Below are positions 33,833 through 42,131 of a DNA stretch of 64,000 nt, in pieces. The notes under the pieces are model-generated. The model had not been told where the DNA came from, searched no databases, and saw nothing but the letters and a program-made list of their open reading frames with translations. How positions within the stretch are numbered: the first letter of the stretch is position 1; every line of letters begins with the position of its first letter. The DNA lies in assembly GCA_963808235.1 (NCBI GenBank), contig CAWEEQ010000004.1:2619611-2683610 (forward strand), given 5' to 3'. The position numbers and the translations under genes are program-made. The DNA is from an uncultured delta proteobacterium. GTDB lineage: Bacteria > Desulfobacterota > Binatia > Binatales > Binataceae.

Positions 33833-34279
33833 ATGCGTTCGACGAAATTCAAAATACTAGGCGGCGTCGTGCTCGCGGTGGGCGTGGGATTCTTAGTCTT
33901 CACCTCGAGTTCAAACTGCCGGATGGTGACCGGCCGCGAGGCGGTCGACGTCAACGTATCCGCGATGCGTCCGGGAAGCGCGCAACTGTTTTGCTACACG
34001 GACGACGCGGGCAAAAGACTTCGCTTCGTGCTCGCGCGCGGCACCGACGGCAAAGTGCGCACCGTGTTCGACGCGTGCCGGCAATGCTTCACGTTCCATC
34101 GCGGGTACCAGGTGGTGGGCGGCGAACTAATCTGCCGGGTATGCGGCAACCACTACCGCATCGATCGAATGGCCGAGGGCAAAGCGTCGTGCGTGCCGGC
34201 AAGCCTGCCGCATGAAGACGGGTCGGGGGTGGTGAGAATCAAGACCTCGGACTTGCAAGCCGGGCACGCGCTCTTCTAA
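33833..34279 (+). CDS. membrane-anchored Cys-ribbon protein (CxxC...CxxC), uncharacterised
   Basis: N-terminal TM helix; FDACRQC...ICRVCG four-Cys motif; immediately upstream of SCO1. Lacks the H/M-rich motifs of PCuAC. Confidence 0.5.
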   Translation: MRSTKFKILGGVVLAVGVGFLVFTSSSNCRMVTGREAVDVNVSAMRPGSAQLFCYTDDAGKRLRFVLARGTDGKVRTVFDACRQCFTFHRGYQVVGGELICRVCGNHYRIDRMAEGKASCVPASLPHEDGSGVVRIKTSDLQAGHALF

Positions 34280-34287
34280 GCAAATCC

Positions 34288-34899
34288 ATGAATCAAGGCC
34301 GCACCAGTCGTGTTCGCGGACGAGTCTTCTCGATCGTCGCCGTGGCGTTTCTGGTTGTTTTCTCGGCATGCAATCGGGAGGCGGCCGGCGATTATCCGGC
34401 GGCGAACGGGAATAATTGCCTGCCCGATGTGAGTCTGATCGATCAGCACGGGAGTACTGTTTCGCTGGCCTCGCTGAAGGGCAAACCGGTGCTGATCGAT
34501 TTCATCTACACGTCTTGCGCGTCGACCTGCCCGGTACTGACGGCGAAGATGGTGTCCGTGGCGCGCCAACTCGGCCCCGCTCTGGGAGCCAACGTGACGA
34601 TTGTTTCGATTACGCTCGATCCCGAGCACGACGGTCCCGCGCAACTCGCGAGCTATGCGAAATCGCAAGGCGCCGACGCTCGTGGGTGGCTGTTTCTGAC
34701 CGGCAAGCCCGCCCAAGTCGACCAGGTGCTCGCGCTGTTCAAGCTGCGGCGGATGCGCGAGAGCGACGGATCGATCACGCATTCGGTGTCGGCATTCCTG
34801 CTCGGTCCCGACGGCCACCAGGTTCGCCAGTACAATGCACTCAACGTCAACGCGAGCGCGGTAGTCGGCGATATCGATCGCTCGCGCGGCAAGAGTTAA
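34288..34899 (+). CDS. SCO1/SenC family copper chaperone (thioredoxin fold)
   Basis: LKGKPVLIDFIYTSCASTCP (CxxxC) ... TLDPEHD ... conserved His in SITHSV. Confidence 0.85.
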   Translation: MNQGRTSRVRGRVFSIVAVAFLVVFSACNREAAGDYPAANGNNCLPDVSLIDQHGSTVSLASLKGKPVLIDFIYTSCASTCPVLTAKMVSVARQLGPALGANVTIVSITLDPEHDGPAQLASYAKSQGADARGWLFLTGKPAQVDQVLALFKLRRMRESDGSITHSVSAFLLGPDGHQVRQYNALNVNASAVVGDIDRSRGKS

Positions 34900-34902
34900 C
34901 CG

Positions 34903-35223
34903 ATGGCAACCTCGCTGGGAATCGATCGGCTCTCTATTCGTCAACTTGCCGGCGCGATGGCGCTGGTGATGATGATTGCGAGTCTGCCGGCGATCGGCGT
35001 GATCGTCATTGCCGATCGTGCGGGGCCAACTATATCGCTCGACATCTGTCATCCGCTGCAATCGCTCGACGCGTCACCAGGCGCCGTGTCGATCGCGCGC
35101 CCCGCGCAGCCGGAGATTGGCATCCAGATTCTTGCGCATGAGGCATTTGCCCAGTTTGTTCCCATTGCGAAGAGTAAATTCGCCGAGACTCCCGATCCGC
35201 CTCCGCCCAAGTCGCTCTGCTAG
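34903..35223 (+). CDS. small single-TM protein with conserved C-terminal TPDPPPPKSL motif (uncharacterised family; paralog of 37617..37931)
   Basis: LVMMIASLPAIGVIVIA TM; ICHPLQ; ARPAQPE; ends ETPDPPPPKSLC. Clear paralogy with 37617..37931. Confidence 0.5.
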   Translation: MATSLGIDRLSIRQLAGAMALVMMIASLPAIGVIVIADRAGPTISLDICHPLQSLDASPGAVSIARPAQPEIGIQILAHEAFAQFVPIAKSKFAETPDPPPPKSLC

Positions 35224-35316
35224 ACGGACACCCTTACATTTTTTCGCAGATAGACGATTGCTCGCGGACCTCGACGGTTCGCGAGAGCAGGATACGGCCC
35301 GAGCTGGCCGCGGTGG

Positions 35317-36291
35317 ATGCTTATGCGGAGGAATTTTGTTTTTGCGTTGATAGCCGTGCTGGTGTTGCGCGCGAGCGCGGCATCCGCGCACGGAGTTGTG
35401 GGAGACTACGTGTTCCTTGAGCCGCTGGTGGCCGAGGATCCCACTCCCGCCAATGAGCTGGACATCCTGGCGCCATCGTGGGTCAGAAGCAGCGACGCTA
35501 ATGACTACTCGATCGGATTCTCGGGCGAGAAAGTTCTTTGGATCGACGACAACTACATGCCGACATTCAGCCTGGCGGCCGGTACGGCGTGGCATCATGT
35601 TTCGCCGTTTAACATCTCTGTGCCGCGATCACGGGTCCTCGGAACGCTCGCCCCACTGCACACACCCAGCCACGAAGGAGTTGATAATCCGGAGGTAGCC
35701 GCAAAATGGGCCTTCTTCTATTCGCTGCCACATGAGTTTCTGACCTCGGTAGCATTGGTAGCCGACTTGCCGGTGGGCAACAGCGCGATCCGGAATCAGA
35801 GCCACACGAGCCTAGGTCCGGAACTGCTTATGGAAAAGGGTCTCGGCGACCTTCCCAATATGCCGGTGCTGAAATATCTTCGGCCGCTGGGACTCCAGGG
35901 CAACGTCGGTTATTTGCCGGCACTAGGCGGGCAGACCAGTCATGACCTGTTTGCCAATGCTGTGATTGAGTATTCGCTCCCGTACCTGAGCAACAATGTT
36001 CAGGATATTGGACTCAAGTGGCCGCTCCGCAACCTCTACCCGTTCGTGGAAATCAACTACGATCAACTGGTCAAAGGACCATCGGGCCAGACATTCCCCT
36101 CGATCCTGGCGACCCCCGGCATCGCGTACGTCAGCTATCACTTCGAACTGAGCCTTGGCACTCAGTTCGCGCTCAACGACGCAGCCCGACCCGGCACCCA
36201 TGCCGCGGTGCTTGGTCTGCTGGACATTTTTTACGATTCGTTTTTCCCGAAATGGGGCAACTGGACTATCAATCGAGGACCCGGCCAATGA
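35317..36291 (+). CDS. exported hypothetical protein; predicted mature N-terminus begins with His (ASAASA|HGVVGDY); translationally coupled (ATGA) to copC
   Basis: Signal peptide MLMRRNFVFALIAVLVLRASAASA; amphipathic beta-strand-like C-terminal region. No recognised family. Confidence 0.55.
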   Translation: MLMRRNFVFALIAVLVLRASAASAHGVVGDYVFLEPLVAEDPTPANELDILAPSWVRSSDANDYSIGFSGEKVLWIDDNYMPTFSLAAGTAWHHVSPFNISVPRSRVLGTLAPLHTPSHEGVDNPEVAAKWAFFYSLPHEFLTSVALVADLPVGNSAIRNQSHTSLGPELLMEKGLGDLPNMPVLKYLRPLGLQGNVGYLPALGGQTSHDLFANAVIEYSLPYLSNNVQDIGLKWPLRNLYPFVEINYDQLVKGPSGQTFPSILATPGIAYVSYHFELSLGTQFALNDAARPGTHAAVLGLLDIFYDSFFPKWGNWTINRGPGQ

Positions 36292-36668
36292 AGACTTCGA
36301 AAATGTGCGTATCGGGTGCGGCGCTAGTTGCTATTGGGATGAGCTTTGCGATCGTGGCGTGGGCACATTCGTTTCCCGAGTCGGAGACTCCGTCGGCGGG
36401 ACAAACGGTCGCATCCGCTCCCGCCGAGATAACGATCAACTTCGACGCTCCGATAGAGAAGCTGTTCGCCAAGCTGGAAGTGACCGGCGCCGACGGCAAG
36501 AACGAAGCGGCCGGCGCTCCGCAGATCAGCGACGACGGACGGCGGATGTCGGTGAAGGTCAACGCGCTCAAACCCGGCGACTACGCGGTCAAGTGGGCCG
36601 TCGTAGGTATCGATACGCATCATACGCAAGGCTCGTACACGTTCGCGATCGCAAGCGGAGGATCGTGA
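36288..36668 (+). CDS. copC: copper resistance protein CopC (periplasmic Cu-binding, His1 mature N-terminus)
   Basis: Signal peptide ...IVAWA|HSFPESETPSAG; KPGDYAVKWAVVGIDTHHTQGSYTFAI matches the CopC fold. Confidence 0.85.
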   Translation: MKTSKMCVSGAALVAIGMSFAIVAWAHSFPESETPSAGQTVASAPAEITINFDAPIEKLFAKLEVTGADGKNEAAGAPQISDDGRRMSVKVNALKPGDYAVKWAVVGIDTHHTQGSYTFAIASGGS

Positions 36669-37531
36669 TCGAACCAGCGGTAATTCTGGCCTGGCCATTG
36701 ATCACGGCCCAGATCGTGATTTTTGGAACTGCGGCTTTTGCGCTGATGACATCACCTGGCGAGGTCCCGGGCGGCGATGGACCGACCCACGCCCTCATCG
36801 TGCTATGGCGCGGACTGGCGCTTGCGATTCTTGCAATTTCGCCGGTGAGGTTCCTGGCCGTGGCGGCCGGCATGGCCGACACTACGTTGAAGGAAGCCAT
36901 TCCATTTGTGCCGCAGATAATGCGCGAAACATTCGCCGGGCGGGTGTGGGCATGGCGACTCGGCGTCGACGCGATTCTGGCGATTGCGGCGTGGCTTCCA
37001 GCGCGTCGGAAGCTCCCGGTTCTGATCTCCGCGATTTCGTGCGCACTGCTCCTATTCCAGAGCGTCACGAGTCACGCGGTGGATAGCGGCGCGTACGCGA
37101 TCGCAATTGTATTCATTCATCAGGTTGCCGCGGGCTTGTGGATCGGAGCGCTGGTAACCTTGCTGGTTGGAGCAACCTTCGGCCGCGCGGGCGCCGAGTG
37201 GCTCAAGTGGGCTTCGGGGCGAGTGTCAACGACTGCGGGATGGTCGGTAGCGGCGCTTGCCATCACCGGCGCGATCAGGGCGTGGTACGCGCTCGGACTG
37301 CGCTACGACCTGCTGGTGTATTCGCTCTACGGCCGCACCCTGCTCTGGAAGCTCGCGACCGCGGCAACGGTGATTCTGATCGGCGGATACAACCGCTATC
37401 GCCTGGTGCCGGCAGTGGGCGAAGCGTCGGCGCGCACGACGCTGATTCATAATGTCACCCTGGAATGCCTGCTGCTGGCCGCGGTTCTCGGTTGGTCCGC
37501 GCTGCTGGCCAACACGCCGCCGCCGCATTGA
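36665..37531 (+). CDS. copD: copper resistance protein CopD (8-TM membrane protein)
   Basis: GTG start overlapping the copC stop (GTGA); polytopic; conserved His residues (FQSVTSHAVDSG..FIHQVAAGLW). Confidence 0.8.
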   Translation: MIEPAVILAWPLITAQIVIFGTAAFALMTSPGEVPGGDGPTHALIVLWRGLALAILAISPVRFLAVAAGMADTTLKEAIPFVPQIMRETFAGRVWAWRLGVDAILAIAAWLPARRKLPVLISAISCALLLFQSVTSHAVDSGAYAIAIVFIHQVAAGLWIGALVTLLVGATFGRAGAEWLKWASGRVSTTAGWSVAALAITGAIRAWYALGLRYDLLVYSLYGRTLLWKLATAATVILIGGYNRYRLVPAVGEASARTTLIHNVTLECLLLAAVLGWSALLANTPPPH

Positions 37532-37616
37532 CGAAAGTTTTGCGCCAGGCACCGCGATCGCGATGCCAATGGACATTGAACTCGGGGGACGGTTACTTTA
37601 GAACGGTAACTGCGCT

Positions 37617-37931
37617 ATGAGGCAATTCTTTTCAAAGGCGGACTTGCGGGACCTGAGTTTGGTCATGGCCATAGTGATGCTGTTGGCCAGCATCCCCGTG
37701 ACTGAGGGGTTCGTCGTCGTCTCGAGGCCGAGCGGACCAGAATTGACCGCCAACATTTGCCAGCCGATTCAAATGTTCGACCGCGCGTCGAACACGTTGC
37801 TCGCGCGCCCCGCGGCCGTCGCGCCGGAGGTCGTTCTCTGCGATCTGGGCCCGGCCGCGATAAAGGAGACGGTGCGATTGGTCGACATCAAGATCGCTCC
37901 CGACACTCCGCCCCCAAAGAGCCTCGTCTAA
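37617..37931 (+). CDS. small single-TM protein with C-terminal DTPPPKSL motif (paralog of 34903..35223)
   Basis: LVMAIVMLLASIPVTEGFVVV TM; ICQPIQ; ARPAAVAPE; ends APDTPPPKSLV. Confidence 0.5.
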   Translation: MRQFFSKADLRDLSLVMAIVMLLASIPVTEGFVVVSRPSGPELTANICQPIQMFDRASNTLLARPAAVAPEVVLCDLGPAAIKETVRLVDIKIAPDTPPPKSLV

Positions 37932-38018
37932 GAACTCTCGACAACGTTTCCTCTGATAGCCACGCTGCGAACCTCGCGGCGGAAGGCGTTTTCTCTGAGG
38001 CAAGCGGCGCGCCGCAAG

Positions 38019-39002
38019 GTGTCCGCTGGGAGATGTTCTATGCGACGGAGTTATTGGGTTGCCCTGTTGGCAGGAGCGGCCGTTTTTCTGATCGGCCTGA
38101 CGCCCGATCTGAGCTGGGCCTGCGCTTGTGGATGTGGAGTCTACGAAGTCGGTACCGCAGCGTTGTTTCCGACCGACCACGGCGGAACGGTCTGGTTGGA
38201 GTATGACTACCAGGATCAGTACCTGAACTGGCATGCGACCCAAATCGCCTCAGGGGCCAAGAATGGCGACAAGAGAATCCGGACGCACTTTCTGACTCTC
38301 GGTGGTCAGTACATGTTCAACCGGAGTTGGGGAGTGCAGCTGGAGCTCCCGTACGCGTTTCGCTACTTCAAATCGACCAACGACGCCGGCCAGATTTTCG
38401 GGACCAACTTCAACACCATCGGGGACATCCGTATCCAAGGAATGTACACCGGGCTCTCGGAAGACATGTCGACGGGGCTGATGGCCGGCGCGAAGTTCCC
38501 GAGCGGATGGTGGACTTATCCGCATGCCGATCGAGACACCCAGATTGGCTCGGGGAGCACCGATCTACTGCTCTCGGCTTACCATCTCGGAACGTTTCCA
38601 ACCCATGTTGGGAAGCTGCCGCTGACGTTCAGGGATCGCCCTTTCAACTGGTTTGTGCAGGCGTACGAGGATTTCCCGGTTTTCACGCAAGACCACTATA
38701 CCCCGGGAAGGGAATTCGACTCGGCGCTGGGGGTCTACTACAACTTCGGCACGGTTGGCCCTTTGAAGGAACTCGCGCCGATGCTGACCTTTCTCGCTTC
38801 CGACCGCGCGCGTGACCAAGGCGCCTCTGCCAATCATGAGAACAGCGGCTATACGCGCTTTCTCATTGCTCCTGGAGCCGAGATCAAACTCGGAATCTTG
38901 CGACTATACGGAGACGTCGAGGTCCCGTTTTTTCAAAATATGATTGGTAATCAGATAACCGCGCCGCTCCTGTTCAAGACCATTGTAAGCTACGACTTCT
39001 AG
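38019..39002 (+). CDS. putative outer-membrane beta-barrel protein with CACGCG motif at predicted mature N-terminus
   Basis: Signal peptide ...LTPDLSWA|CACGCGVYEV; alternating-hydrophobic strands; C-terminal ...LLFKTIVSYDF (aromatic terminal residue typical of OMPs). Confidence 0.55.
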   Translation: MSAGRCSMRRSYWVALLAGAAVFLIGLTPDLSWACACGCGVYEVGTAALFPTDHGGTVWLEYDYQDQYLNWHATQIASGAKNGDKRIRTHFLTLGGQYMFNRSWGVQLELPYAFRYFKSTNDAGQIFGTNFNTIGDIRIQGMYTGLSEDMSTGLMAGAKFPSGWWTYPHADRDTQIGSGSTDLLLSAYHLGTFPTHVGKLPLTFRDRPFNWFVQAYEDFPVFTQDHYTPGREFDSALGVYYNFGTVGPLKELAPMLTFLASDRARDQGASANHENSGYTRFLIAPGAEIKLGILRLYGDVEVPFFQNMIGNQITAPLLFKTIVSYDF

Positions 39003-39011
39003 GAGCATCAG

Positions 39012-39545
39012 ATGCGCTCAAAAATGTCCTGGTTCGCCGCAGTTGTTGCCGGGATCCTTGCGTTTGCCGGTTCCAGCACTTTCGCGCGCGCGGCCACCGA
39101 TGTCGGTCAGCCCGCGCCCGCGCTGGTCGTGCCGGAACTGGACGGCCAGGCGTTTGACCTAAGTGCGATGCGCGGGAAGGTCGTAATCGTCAATTTCTGG
39201 GCCACCTGGTGTCCTCCCTGCCGCGAGGAGATGCCGGCCCTCGACAGTTTCTATCGGCGCTATCATGGTCAGGGGCTTGAAATGATCGGTCTCAGCTCCG
39301 ACCGCCCGCACAATCGGTCCGACGTGACCAAGGTCATGCAATCATTCAGCTATCCGGCGGCGATGCTGGATGACGCCAAGGTCAACGAGTTCGGCACATC
39401 CAGCGTTCTGCCGATCACCGTCATCGTGGATAGAAATGGCGTGGTGCGCGCGAAGCTTACCCCCGATCAAACCCCGGTTACCGAGAAGAGTCTATCCGAC
39501 GCGGTGCTACCGCTGCTGGCGCAAAGTTCGGCGGCGAATCCTTAG
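39012..39545 (+). CDS. TlpA/ResA-family thiol-disulfide oxidoreductase
   Basis: Signal peptide; VVIVNFWATWCPPCREEMP (WCxxC). Confidence 0.8.
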   Translation: MRSKMSWFAAVVAGILAFAGSSTFARAATDVGQPAPALVVPELDGQAFDLSAMRGKVVIVNFWATWCPPCREEMPALDSFYRRYHGQGLEMIGLSSDRPHNRSDVTKVMQSFSYPAAMLDDAKVNEFGTSSVLPITVIVDRNGVVRAKLTPDQTPVTEKSLSDAVLPLLAQSSAANP

Positions 39546-39552
39546 GCTCCCA

Positions 39553-39882
39553 ATGAAGACCTTCGCCTTACTCGCGATCATTCTGATGGCTGGATGCTCA
39601 GCCGCGAACACTCACACCGGTGATATGGATCCGAGGCTCGCTGACCTGGAAGCACAGAGGCAGACGATCGCCGGGCGCGAGAAAAAGTGCATCGACGAAA
39701 CGCAGGCGCGTAGCCATGATCAAGTGGAGCGCGATCGGGAAGTTTTGGAATGCCACGCGACGGCGCATCACGAAAACGCCGAAATCTCCGAGCAAGAGCG
39801 CAAAGAATATGAGCTTCAGGCGCAGGAGGAGAGGCATCGTGCTTCCCTTATGGCGATTCTTACGACCTCTCAGCCACGCTGA
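39553..39882 (+). CDS. small lipoprotein, charged/coiled, Cys-His-rich (hypothetical)
   Basis: Lipobox LMAGCSA; KKCIDE...LECHATAHHENAE. Visibly lower GC than the neighbours. Confidence 0.45.
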   Translation: MKTFALLAIILMAGCSAANTHTGDMDPRLADLEAQRQTIAGREKKCIDETQARSHDQVERDREVLECHATAHHENAEISEQERKEYELQAQEERHRASLMAILTTSQPR

Positions 39883-39887
39883 GGACT

Positions 39888-40529
39888 ATGAATGGAAGTA
39901 GAATGGATTCGAGTCGAACTGCAGCCGATCTTGTTCATATGACTTCAACAGTGTCGATCGCCAGTACTGATTCGGCGCGCATCCCACAGGGAGGGGGTCT
40001 CGGAATGCAGGTTCTGCGCGATCTCGGTGGGGTCGCGCTGCTCGCAATCGCGTCGCTCGCGGCTGGACTCGTGATTAACCGGTTTTCACACGGCCCGCTT
40101 CCAGTCGTGTATCAGACGCCAGAGGAGCGGTTCGATGCCGAGCTGACGACTCTGGTCGCGGCGCCGCCGTTTAAGATCGCGCCCGCGGCAACGGTCGGAC
40201 TCGATGAATTCCGCAAGGCCGTCGAAAGCAAGAGTGCGCTCATCCTGGATGCGCGCCCGTCCGTGTTCTTCGAACAGGGACACGTCCCGGGGGCGCTCAA
40301 TCTCGCGCGAGACGACTTCGCGCGCGACTATCGGAACTTGGCTGGCGTGCTGCAGGCCGCCCATGACAAACCGATCGTCGTGTATTGCTCCGGTGGCGAC
40401 TGTCATGACAGCCGGCTGGTTGCGAACGCGCTGCTGAGTCTCGGCATCAACAATGTGACGATCTTCACCGGGGGTTGGAATGAGTGGTCGGCGGCCGGAC
40501 TGCCGGCATCGACGGGGAGCGGACCATGA
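39888..40529 (+). CDS. membrane-anchored rhodanese-domain sulfurtransferase
   Basis: ALILDARPSVFFEQGHVPGALNL ... PIVVYCSGGDCHDS (active-site Cys loop) ... GGWNEW. The true start may be internal. Confidence 0.75.
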   Translation: MNGSRMDSSRTAADLVHMTSTVSIASTDSARIPQGGGLGMQVLRDLGGVALLAIASLAAGLVINRFSHGPLPVVYQTPEERFDAELTTLVAAPPFKIAPAATVGLDEFRKAVESKSALILDARPSVFFEQGHVPGALNLARDDFARDYRNLAGVLQAAHDKPIVVYCSGGDCHDSRLVANALLSLGINNVTIFTGGWNEWSAAGLPASTGSGP

Positions 40530-41014
40530 TGACGCTCGACAGCTCGCGCCGCTACGTCGTGTTGGCGATCAGCGCGGTGCTGGCCGGCGTGTTCATCTAC
40601 GCGGGCATCGATAAGATTCGCGACCCGCTGCAGTTTGCGGATAGTATCGCGGCATTCGCGATCCTGCCGGTCGTGTTGATCAACCTGCCTGCGATCGGGT
40701 TGCCACCATTCGAGATAGGTTGCGCGCTCCTGTTGCTTCCGCCGGCGACCAGGCGGATCGGTGCGCTCGCCGTGGCTCTTCTGTCCGTCGTTTTCATGAT
40801 CGCCCTGTCGTCCGCACTGCGTCGAGGTCTCACGCTCGACTGCGGATGTTTCGGGACCGGCGCGCCGTCGCGGCCGAGAATGTGGTTGGAGCTGGCGCTG
40901 GACGCAGGTTTGTTCGCGGGCGCGGTGTTCGTCTATTTGAGCTCGATCGCCCGCCTCTCCGCGCGGACGCCGTCTCTCTCTTCTTCACCGCAGCCTCAGG
41001 TTACAAACGAGTGA
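40526..41014 (+). CDS. MauE/DoxX-family redox-associated membrane protein
   Basis: 4 TM; LDCGCFGTG motif typical of MauE; ATGATGA overlap with the rhodanese gene. Confidence 0.7.
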   Translation: MMTLDSSRRYVVLAISAVLAGVFIYAGIDKIRDPLQFADSIAAFAILPVVLINLPAIGLPPFEIGCALLLLPPATRRIGALAVALLSVVFMIALSSALRRGLTLDCGCFGTGAPSRPRMWLELALDAGLFAGAVFVYLSSIARLSARTPSLSSSPQPQVTNE

Positions 41015-41044
41015 CCGGCGACAACAACAATCCAAATATCAGGA

Positions 41045-41656
41045 ATGGATGCAAATATGAGTATTCATCGTAGTCTCAGATCTCTAGCTATCGTCGCAGC
41101 AATAACGTCGAGCCTGCTCGCGGTGACTGGATGCCATCGCGGCGCCGCCGCGGATGACGCGGCCGCCTCGAACTGCCTCACGGACACCAGCCTCATCGAT
41201 CAGAATGGCGACAAGGTCTCGCTCGCGTCGCTCAAGGGCAAGCCGCTGGTGGTGGATTTCATCTATACGTCGTGTCCGGGGCCGTGCCTGATGGAGACGG
41301 CGAAGCTGGCCAACGTCGCGCTTCGATTGGGAAGCGATCTCGGTTCAAAGGTCATGATCGTTTCGATCAGCGTCGATCCCGAGCATGACGGGCCCAAACA
41401 ATTGCTCGCTTACTCGCGTCAGCAGGGCGCGGACGAGAAGGGCTGGTATTTCCTGACCGGAGGTCCCGGCGACGTCGACAAAGCGCTGGCGGGTTTCAAG
41501 CTCAGCAGGCAAATCGAACCCGATGGCTCGGTCGGGCACCTGGTCGATATGATGCTTATCGGACCCGACGGGCGGCTGGTTCATGAATACAACGGCGAAG
41601 TCGTAAAAGCTCAGACTATCGTCGATGATGTCAGGAAGACCCTGAACAAGAGTTGA
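41045..41656 (+). CDS. SCO1/SenC family copper chaperone (second paralog; lipoprotein)
   Basis: Lipobox LAVTGC; LKGKPLVVDFIYTSCPGPCL (CxxxC); SVDPEHD; about 50% identical to 34288..34899. Confidence 0.85.
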   Translation: MDANMSIHRSLRSLAIVAAITSSLLAVTGCHRGAAADDAAASNCLTDTSLIDQNGDKVSLASLKGKPLVVDFIYTSCPGPCLMETAKLANVALRLGSDLGSKVMIVSISVDPEHDGPKQLLAYSRQQGADEKGWYFLTGGPGDVDKALAGFKLSRQIEPDGSVGHLVDMMLIGPDGRLVHEYNGEVVKAQTIVDDVRKTLNKS

Positions 41657-41666
41657 AGGGTGCAGC

Positions 41667-42131
41667 ATGAGACGAGCAATCATTTTCGGATCTTCGCTCG
41701 CGACGATTCTGGCGCTGGCATATTTGTGGCCGATGGTCGCTGGTTCGTCGGCGCAGAGCGGCGGTCCTCGCGGAGCGATGTGCGTCGCGGGCCATTGCTG
41801 CTGCTCGGGACGCGCAGAGGCGCAGACCGTCGCGGCTAACGAATCACAAGGCGCTCCGACGCTCGATCCAAAGCAGTTCGTGGGTCCGGTAAGAGAGGCG
41901 TACACATTTGCGGGGAAGGATCCCGCGCTGCTGGCGCAACTGCATTGCTACTGCGGATGCGACAAGGCGTTCGGTCATCAGAGCCTGCTCGATTGCTATC
42001 GCGGCACCCATGGAGCGACGTGCGAGGTCTGCACTCAGGAGGCGTTGCTGGCGAAGCGCATGTCGGAGCAAGGTTCGCCGGTCGATGAGATACGCAACGC
42101 GATTCGCAGAAACTTCGCGCCCGACAATTGA
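41667..42131 (+). CDS. PCYCGC-motif protein (Cys-rich, secreted)
   Basis: Signal peptide; GHCCCSG; LHCYCGCDKAFGHQSLLDCYRGTHGATCEVC matches the PCYCGC family signature. Confidence 0.6.
   Translation: MRRAIIFGSSLATILALAYLWPMVAGSSAQSGGPRGAMCVAGHCCCSGRAEAQTVAANESQGAPTLDPKQFVGPVREAYTFAGKDPALLAQLHCYCGCDKAFGHQSLLDCYRGTHGATCEVCTQEALLAKRMSEQGSPVDEIRNAIRRNFAPDN

Follow-up and report, generated by a model that had tools for sequence, protein, structure and literature searches.

What does a protein of no recognised family do when its gene is joined to those of the copper proteins CopC and CopD? The question is raised by a 64,000-nucleotide stretch of DNA from an uncultured delta proteobacterium of the Binataceae (GenBank assembly GCA_963808235.1, contig CAWEEQ010000004.1, positions 2,619,611 to 2,683,610 of the forward strand), which is called the window throughout. 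Here an open reading frame on the forward strand (35317-36291) encodes a 324-aa protein directly before copC and copD. We refer to this protein as X and to a second barrel protein, encoded further downstream on the same strand (38019-39002), as Y. The original prediction for the locus, made from the letters of the DNA, was that X is an exported protein whose mature form would begin with histidine and which could be a copper-binding partner of CopC and CopD. The best reading of the analysis reported here is that X is a TonB-independent, copper-regulated gate in the outer membrane. It would form the outer-membrane part of a three-compartment copper acquisition line, alongside periplasmic CopC and inner-membrane CopD, and we put the probability of this reading at roughly 55%. 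We consider it quite probable that X acts in copper handling.

The X gene and the amino terminus of its product

The reading frame is present in the sequence and opens with a Sec signal peptide of textbook form (35317-35388, forward strand) that can be read directly from the letters. It has an n-region, MLMRRN, with two arginines, an h-region of 11 residues, FVFALIAVLVL, and a c-region, RASAASA, with alanine at -3 and -1. The residue that follows is His25 (codon CAC, 35389-35391), and cleavage before it is predicted from the -3/-1 rule and from conservation (ASA↓H; the arrow marks the cleavage site). A Shine-Dalgarno-like GGTGG (35312-35316) stands immediately before the first ATG and 6 nt ahead of the ATG at 35323, the third codon, where the public gene call also begins (P0001, 322 aa). 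Since the Shine-Dalgarno spacing and the gene call agree, 35323 is probably the true start rather than 35317; the cleavage site is the same whichever applies. At the 3' end, the stop codon of X (TGA, 36289-36291) overlaps the ATG of copC (36288-36290) as ATGA (36288-36291), and the stop codon of copC (36666-36668) overlaps the GTG of copD (36665-36667) as GTGA (36665-36668). The arrangement is that of one operon, in which X is predicted to be co-transcribed and translationally coupled with copC and copD.

CopC (36288-36668, forward strand; Pfam PF04234, 7.8e-22) is a periplasmic Cu(II) chaperone. It has the amino terminus AWA↓HSFPE, a DxH motif (GIDTHH) and no Met-rich Cu(I) site, which places it in the C0-1 type, the Cu(II)-only class of CopC proteins as defined in PMC12362106. 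CopD (36665-37531, forward strand; PF05425, 1.5e-13; NCBIfam copper_CopD, 1.4e-32) is an inner-membrane protein and putative copper importer. X itself has no match in Pfam or NCBIfam at E<0.1 and no meaningful sequence match in PDB. The predicted amino-terminal histidine of X, the same arrangement in CopC, both gene overlaps and the lack of a family assignment had all been part of the original prediction, and each was borne out.

The relatives of X are numerous. A word-indexed search returned 455, a profile search of 1.84 billion cluster representatives returned 614 clusters at 50% identity, and, for the proteobacterial branch, a search from a Nitrobacter member returned at least 6180 clusters at 90% identity. 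Every member is annotated as 'hypothetical' and there is no curated family. The amino-terminal peptide of mature X is HGVVGDYVFLEPLVAEDPTPANE; residues 1-22 (HGVVGDYVFLEPLVAEDPTPAN; 35389-35454, forward strand) stand before the first strand of the fold described below. Judged from alignments, the cleavage site and the histidine behind it (His1) are conserved far beyond chance. A↓HGVVGDY is found in all 120 of the 120 closest homologues, and [AG]↓HE(I/V)VGNRFF in 119 of 120 proteobacterial homologues. Among diverse relatives (73 cluster representatives, 23-62% identity), alanine stands at -1 in 66 and histidine at +1 in 57, with mostly a small residue at -3. His1 is invariant in an alignment of 68 close relatives and is kept in 128 of 152 distinct full-length family members, and tblastn alignments to proteobacterial plasmid genes start exactly at this residue. 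The expectation that homologues would keep the histidine was supported.

The amino-terminal motif of the family can be written H-[GA]-x-[VA]-G-x-R-x-F-...-[DE]-D-P-x-x-x-[DN]-E-L. Gly5, Phe9 and Asp17 are conserved among the 73 diverse relatives, and Asp17 is near-invariant across the family. Five members carry cysteines at +2 and +19 together, for which the simplest reading is a disulfide; because the two co-occur, residue 2 would come to stand beside residue 19 and the terminus would fold back on the invariant Asp17-Pro18 turn as a hairpin. A Cys2/Cys19 pair is seen in the amino-terminal segment of the X homologue on plasmid pGW6_1 of Methylocystis rosea (L082, 5965-7041).

Across the 152 members, the columns that tell His-type proteins from the others are Gly2, Gly5, Glu23, Asp206 and Gly208. 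Glu23 has a frequency of 0.97 in the His-type against 0.29 in the others, and Asp206 of 0.79 against 0.25. Common to both groups are Asp17, His115-Glu116, the KGxGDLP and YSxPYL turns and the C-terminal Asp283. Because Gly2, Gly5, Glu23 and Asp206 track His1, and a second histidine does not, the site, if it binds metal, would more probably be a mono-histidine brace like that of YcnI, in which a carboxylate joins His1, than the brace of CopC or of lytic polysaccharide monooxygenases. The check named with the original prediction was for a conserved His1 together with a second His or Asp. His1 and acidic residues (Asp17, Glu23 and Asp206, conserved or tracking) were found; a second histidine that tracks His1 was not.

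Fold, location and nearest structural relatives of X

An AlphaFold2 model was built on the mature protein with 68 aligned sequences. The model is all-beta with 12 long strands (predicted local distance difference test score, pLDDT, 81.1; predicted template modelling score 0.79). DSSP assigns coil to the 22 residues before strand 1, and beyond strand 12 there is a conserved tail; within the coil, pLDDT is 43 for residues 1-10 and 81 for residues 11-20. In a Foldseek search against PDB the best match was FapF (E 9e-8, template modelling score 0.55-0.71, probability 1.0), followed by porins, OMPLA, NanC, OmpG and autotransporter barrels at a probability of ~1. Many X relatives end in ...W(T/E)PF, and an ending of this type is typical of outer-membrane proteins. 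The window encodes BamA, Skp, LpxB, MsbA, KdtA and LpxK, and the host (Candidatus Binatus) is therefore diderm. On the model, X is very probably an integral 12-stranded outer-membrane barrel, with the barrel encoded by 35455-36291 (forward strand) as judged from AlphaFold2, Foldseek and conserved columns. The original prediction had allowed either a periplasmic or an outer-membrane partner. The outer-membrane option is favoured by the 12-stranded model and by the matches to FapF and other outer-membrane barrels, and the soluble periplasmic option is rejected on sequence and model, since the model is that of an outer-membrane barrel. Two other candidates were also rejected: a lipoprotein, as there is no Cys at +1, and an amino-terminal Cu(II)- and Ni(II)-binding (ATCUN) site, which requires His at position 3.

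Conserved within the barrel are the periplasmic turns KGxGDLP...LRP and YSLPYL...D.GL and the C-terminal tail LDxFYD..FP. Across the whole protein, conservation is highest at the amino terminus, in two long turns (residues 150-166 and 195-215) and in the C-terminal tail; given a periplasmic amino terminus, all of these parts lie on the periplasmic side. X of this genome has an in-frame insertion of 18 aa (NISVPRSRVLGTLAPLHT; 35611-35664) in the predicted extracellular loop between strands 3 and 4. The insertion is modelled at low confidence and does not occur in 19 homologues that were compared position by position; the majority of close homologues have 306 aa, against 324 aa here.

Loops rich in His or Met would be independent evidence for metal, and only one of 322 X-family proteins reaches at least 6 His in 25 residues. 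His-rich stretches are also present in the Methylocystis plasmid protein and in its relative P0255 (5 His in 20 residues, below the threshold). In the Methylocystis rosea homologue, the insertions HGHGGGGHGDGHEDGHGGG and EVHHEVEEEVEDGETHVHEHTELH are rich in metal ligands and, if the amino terminus is periplasmic, fall in predicted extracellular loops 1 and 4. They are His/Gly/Asp-rich and His/Glu-rich, and such loops would fit, if weakly, the capture of metal from outside.

X resembles the COG4313 proteins (PF13557; Pput2725, 4RL8) and FapF (5O65) as a monomeric barrel, in its length of ~300 aa, its 12 strands and a conserved segment before strand 1. X has no match to PF13557 at E<0.1; four of the 73 distant relatives match it weakly (best E 2.9e-5). 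Because of these weak contacts, and with the modelled fold in mind, we place the X family at the edge of the COG4313/FapF superfamily. The known proteins of that class differ from X: their substrates are hydrophobic molecules or unfolded polypeptide, not metal ions, and they lack a conserved amino-terminal His, a CopCD partner and a copper-sensing leader. Homology to a non-metal family had been named in the original prediction as an argument against a copper role. What was found is weak, namely the fold and the PF13557 contacts, and His1 and the copper context are specific to the X family.

Copper genes, leader peptides and a second barrel

Among 81 loci, CopC and CopD are encoded directly downstream of every X relative at 46% identity or more; the loci are a sample that was obtained with a narrow alignment (A3) and is biased towards Binatia. 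Among 68 distinct His-type loci, both genes follow directly in 55. Nine are without CopC and CopD, and all nine of these have a poly-Pro leader. The order X-CopC-CopD is found in Binatia, Nitrospirota, Nitrospinota (L075) and Alpha- and Betaproteobacteria, the proteobacterial cases being Paraburkholderia phenazinium, Paraburkholderia atlantica, Methylocystis and Nitrobacter plasmids and a Nitrobacteraceae chromosome. Throughout, the X/CopC/CopD junctions are 4-nt overlaps or gaps of 0-2 nt. On pBC201 of P. atlantica, the order is multicopper oxidase, HiPIP, TlpA, cytochrome c, TlpA, SCO, DUF2946, X, CopC and CopD. Directly after DUF2946-X-CopC-CopD on this replicon (L086, 7392-9512) stand genes for DUF692 and DUF2282, a pair which we take to be linked to copper-binding ribosomal peptides (bufferins). 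On plasmid 2 of Nitrobacter hamburgensis, X-CopC-CopD comes directly after CusBA, a gene for a CusF-like copper-binding protein and DUF411.

In the window, a gene for a SCO1/SenC copper chaperone (34288-34899, forward strand; Pfam SCO1-SenC, 2.6e-28) is separated by 3 nt from a short reading frame, leader 1, which in turn precedes X. Leader 1 (34903-35223, forward strand) encodes 106 aa with an amino-terminal transmembrane or export segment, a conserved DICHPLQ motif and the tail PDPPPPKSLC. Leader 2 (37617-37931, forward strand; 104 aa; NICQPIQ ... PDTPPPKSLV) heads a second cassette, that of Y, and the two are paralogues (37% identity, E 6e-17). In an alignment of 23 leaders, Cys49 (D-I-C-H/Q-P) and PxxPPP (PPP 100-102) are invariant and constantly spaced, with a hydrophobic export segment at the amino terminus and an unconserved middle; the spacer between the Cys and the tail is ~48 aa. 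A leader with a C-terminal PP motif stands upstream of X in 50 of the 68 distinct His-type loci. Among relatives of X, no DICHP/PPPP leader is found within 1.5 kb upstream in loci L008, L009, L011-L013, L016 and L017, and such a leader is present in the window and in L010, L014, L015 and L021. Because close relatives differ in this way, the leader may either be gained and lost on short evolutionary timescales or be located elsewhere in the genomes where none was found.

Membership of the window leaders in DUF2946 was rejected: leader 1 has no Pfam match to DUF2946 (PF11162) at E<0.1, and hhalign gave a probability of 0.2 to true DUF2946, so that the two are analogues only. In Paraburkholderia the leader upstream of X is DUF2946 (9.5e-16), and in Nitrobacteraceae it matches weakly. 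The proteobacterial DUF2946 leader has CAYC, then 44 aa, then RAPP. DUF2946/CruR is an upstream open reading frame that senses copper via its nascent chain in Bordetella and, when copper is present, turns the downstream uptake genes off (PMC9426467); CutF works in a related way (PMC8456105). Like CruR and CutF, the window leaders are small and exported, carry a Cys motif ~45-48 aa from a C-terminal Pro-rich motif and lie directly before the gene. They differ in having a single Cys (C-H/Q-P) and a PPPPK tail in place of CXXC/CXXXC and RAPP, and in its operon leader 1 is preceded by another gene. By analogy, leader 1 is a candidate copper-sensing translational arrest peptide controlling X, and leaders 1 and 2 look like a new, non-DUF2946 type of metal-sensing arrest peptide. 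The minimum free energy fold of the mRNA contains a predicted helix (35189-35330, forward strand) in which the poly-Pro codons of leader 1 (UCCGCC, 35202-35207, with flanks) pair with GGUGGA (35312-35317) and the AUG at 35323. In the folds predicted for 50 loci, the start zone of X pairs with 48% of the poly-Pro-codon bases, against 21% in shuffles, which is suggestive of an RNA switch at the leader-X junction.

A subclade without the histidine serves as a natural control. In it the mature end reads QVGxRNF, lacks His1 and is two residues shorter (L060, L062, L070, L079 and L080). These loci have no CopCD and no leader of this kind, and the single PP-tail flag, in L070, looks spurious. They adjoin genes for Amt ammonium transporters (L060 and L080) or for P-II and a DUF1646 protein (L070), and this subclade may be an outer-membrane channel for a different solute. 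The whole family appears to share the barrel and, in the role of a plug, the segment before it. What appears to go with the copper context is His1 together with a small residue 2 and a carboxylate at 23, because the His-less subclade is without leader and CopCD, and Gly2 and Glu23 are of the His-type.

Y, preceded by leader 2, is a FapF/COG4313-like outer-membrane barrel whose mature amino terminus is an invariant CACGCG. It has 2603 homologues, all hypothetical, with A↓CACGC in 106 of the top 120 and the mature motif CACGCG(V/I)(F/Y)EVGT. The AlphaFold2 model of Y has a pLDDT of 82, and Foldseek matched it to 5o67 (E 2e-8) and to 4rl8 (template modelling score 0.67-0.72). The closest fold in PDB is that of FapF for X as well as for Y, and Y is also matched by 4RL8. 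X and Y share no sequence homology (hhalign probability 0.3); on the models, Y appears to follow, in parallel, the plan of X, with cysteines where X has His1. The same leader family precedes Y here and in another Binataceae genome (L084). The neighbours of Y (TlpA, rhodanese, MauE/DoxX, SCO1 and PCYCGC in the window; CCP/MauG and SoxA/TsdA in L084) suggest thiol or sulfur chemistry, with Cu(I) or sulfur species as candidate substrates.

Both cassettes lie in a copper gene island (~33833-42131) that contains FtrD-like, SCO1, leader 1, X, CopC, CopD, leader 2, Y, TlpA, rhodanese, MauE, a second SCO1 and PCYCGC. The island is set inside an otherwise canonical envelope-biogenesis cluster (27548-47593 of the window), with BamA, Skp, FabZ and LpxA before it and LpxB, MsbA, KdtA and LpxK after it.

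A proposed gate for copper, its rivals and its place among known systems

A histidine exposed by removal of a signal peptide is a Cu(II)/Ni(II) chelate in CopC and YcnI (PMC12362106) and in the anglerases (PMC12537917). In Pput2725, the residues before strand 1 fill the lumen of the 12-stranded barrel from the periplasmic side and set a constriction under an electronegative outer cavity (PMC4493636). By analogy with Pput2725, the ~22 residues before strand 1 of X would enter the barrel from its periplasmic side and fold up within the lumen. At the constriction, His1 would form a Cu(II) site through its free amino group and its imidazole, probably together with Glu23, Asp17 or Asp206, and this site would make the narrow channel copper-selective. 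X would then hand Cu(II) on to CopC, whose His1/Asp/His site is similar in chemistry, and CopC would serve CopD and the neighbouring Sco1 and TlpA cuproenzyme-assembly proteins. An exchange of Cu(II) with a CopC domain is known for YcnI (PMC12362106). Copper would set the expression of X, with ribosome arrest on the PPPP tail of the leader unmasking the ribosome-binding site of X. We see an even chance that His1 binds Cu(II) and feeds CopC in the uptake direction. A wider proposal, which we hold only tentatively, is that X and Y represent an unrecognised class of small TonB-independent outer-membrane gates. In these gates a lumen-inserted plug of a 12-stranded barrel, ending in a processed, metal-chelating terminus (His1 in X, Cys-x-Cys-x-Cys in Y), would act as a selectivity filter and as a swinging arm to a periplasmic chaperone, and would be switched by a metal-sensing arrest peptide.

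Several observations weigh against X as a copper-uptake gate. The nearest structural relatives carry hydrophobic molecules or polypeptides rather than metals, residues 1-7 are modelled at a pLDDT below 50, and analogy is the basis both for placing His1 (in the lumen or in the periplasm) and for naming its partner ligands. There is no conserved second histidine near the amino terminus, and His115 is kept in His-type and non-His-type members. His1 is absent in 16% of the family, and the amino-terminal segment would therefore also have a structural role independent of metal. The window leader is without DUF2946 similarity and has one Cys instead of CXXC, several of the closest relatives of X have no recognisable leader, and the leader-X junction fold is no more stable than shuffles (z -1.08). 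The Nitrobacter module adjoins CusBA/CusF-like efflux genes, so that resistance instead of uptake is possible. Finally, a passage of PMC7558416 cites a Methylosinus copCD mutant without an uptake defect, and CopCD is not proven as an importer everywhere.

X could instead be an ordinary COG4313/FapF channel for small molecules or hydrophobic substrates, in which plug and His1 would be structural and the linkage to copCD would reflect co-regulation without direct handling of copper. The fold class, the four relatives that touch PF13557, the rarity of His-rich loops and the retention of Gly5, Arg7, Phe9 and Asp17 of the motif in members without His1 all agree with such a channel. However, the translational coupling of X to CopC is conserved across at least five phyla, and His1 goes together with the copper context, which is lost in the non-His clade. 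Conservation exactly at the processed terminus is, moreover, a hallmark of amino-terminal metal chelation. We regard an ordinary channel as unlikely.

The efflux neighbours raise a second alternative, in which X is a copper release or resistance channel that substitutes for CopB/PcoB. CopC would hand periplasmic copper to His1 for exit, or X would lower periplasmic copper in some other way. Like X, CopB/PcoB is a barrel of the outer membrane that has genetic links to CopC and CopD and an implied part in the passage of copper, and the classical cop operon pairs outer-membrane CopB with CopC and CopD (PMC7558416). The place of the Nitrobacter hamburgensis module directly after CusBA, the CusF-like gene and DUF411 favours release, as does the multicopper oxidase near the P. 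atlantica module. Against it, the characterised DUF2946/CruR leaders head copper-repressed operons that encode uptake receptors, and X has the cuproenzyme-assembly factors Sco1 and TlpA as neighbours, in the window as well as in Paraburkholderia and Binatia. A passive barrel would also be without an energy source for export against a gradient. X has no similarity to CopB (no Pfam match to PF05275), and it differs from CopB/PcoB in kind: those have a His/Met-rich disordered amino-terminal region and belong to copper-induced resistance operons, whereas X has a single processed His followed by a conserved, structured motif. Release is, on this balance, improbable. More improbable still is a periplasm-facing platform, possibly a sensor, that tethers CopC or CopC-CopD to the outer membrane, with His1 completing a Cu site shared with CopC and no metal passing through the barrel: the periplasmic position of the most conserved parts of X and the tight gene coupling, suggestive of a stoichiometric complex, speak for it, but an electronegative 12-stranded barrel with a plug is the architecture of a channel, and X appears to function without CopC, because leader and X occur in nine His-type loci with neither CopC nor CopD close by (in three of them the contig stops no more than 320 nt after X).

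The proposed copper-acquisition gate has partial parallels in known systems. The closest in chemistry is Bacillus subtilis YcnI (DUF1775), which stands beside YcnJ, a CopC-CopD fusion, and is thus a third protein with a processed amino-terminal His next to CopC and CopD. In YcnI the amino group and imidazole of His1 bind Cu(II) together with a carboxylate, and the protein is required when copper is limiting (PMC12362106, PMC8424229). YcnI and X are unrelated in sequence and in fold: the former is a soluble, cupredoxin-like domain held by a membrane anchor in a monoderm, whereas X is predicted to be an integral outer-membrane barrel of diderms. The anglerases Ang-1 and Ang-2 likewise use a His exposed by signal cleavage to chelate Cu(II)/Ni(II) and feed a membrane permease (PMC12537917), but they are soluble or tethered domains on HupE/UreJ permeases. 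The signal-strapping study of amino-terminal-His proteins in which they are described reports no outer-membrane barrel (PMC12537917).

In genomic position and presumed task, X is closest to the TonB-dependent copper receptors (OprC/NosA, BfrG, PcuB and TccA). These occupy the same position after a DUF2946/CruR leader and beside genes for Sco, PCuAC and CopC, and would do the same job of bringing ionic copper across the outer membrane. They differ from X in having 22 strands, a plug, a TonB box, energy coupling and a Cys/Met/His copper site. X, which is 300 aa long when mature, has 12 strands and a predicted His site at its amino terminus; it lacks a TonB box and has no match to the Plug or TonB_dep_Rec families of Pfam or in NCBIfam (OprC/NosA TIGR01778). 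Literature searches across 8 million papers returned no described outer-membrane CopCD partner of the X kind and no copper link to PF13557. X thus appears as a known class of barrel and a known principle of metal binding in a combination that has not been described.

According to a 2020 review, the established routes of copper across the outer membrane are general porins, TonB-dependent receptors and chalkophores (PMC7558416). How ionic copper crosses this membrane to reach CopC, CopD, Sco and PCuAC is a recognised gap, and X would fill it as a fourth route. If X and Y do form a class of gates, that class would supply, in many bacteria of soil and fresh water, the outer-membrane step that is still missing from the CopC-CopD pathway. 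Members of the X family occur in culturable organisms, namely Paraburkholderia, Caballeronia, Cupriavidus, Nitrobacter, Methylocystis and Bradyrhizobium-like strains, and the hypothesis is therefore directly testable. If it is true, the metal chemistry of the amino-terminal histidine would extend to integral outer-membrane proteins. Thousands of 'hypothetical proteins' would gain a function in nitrifiers, methanotrophs and Binatia, all of which have copper-dependent key enzymes.

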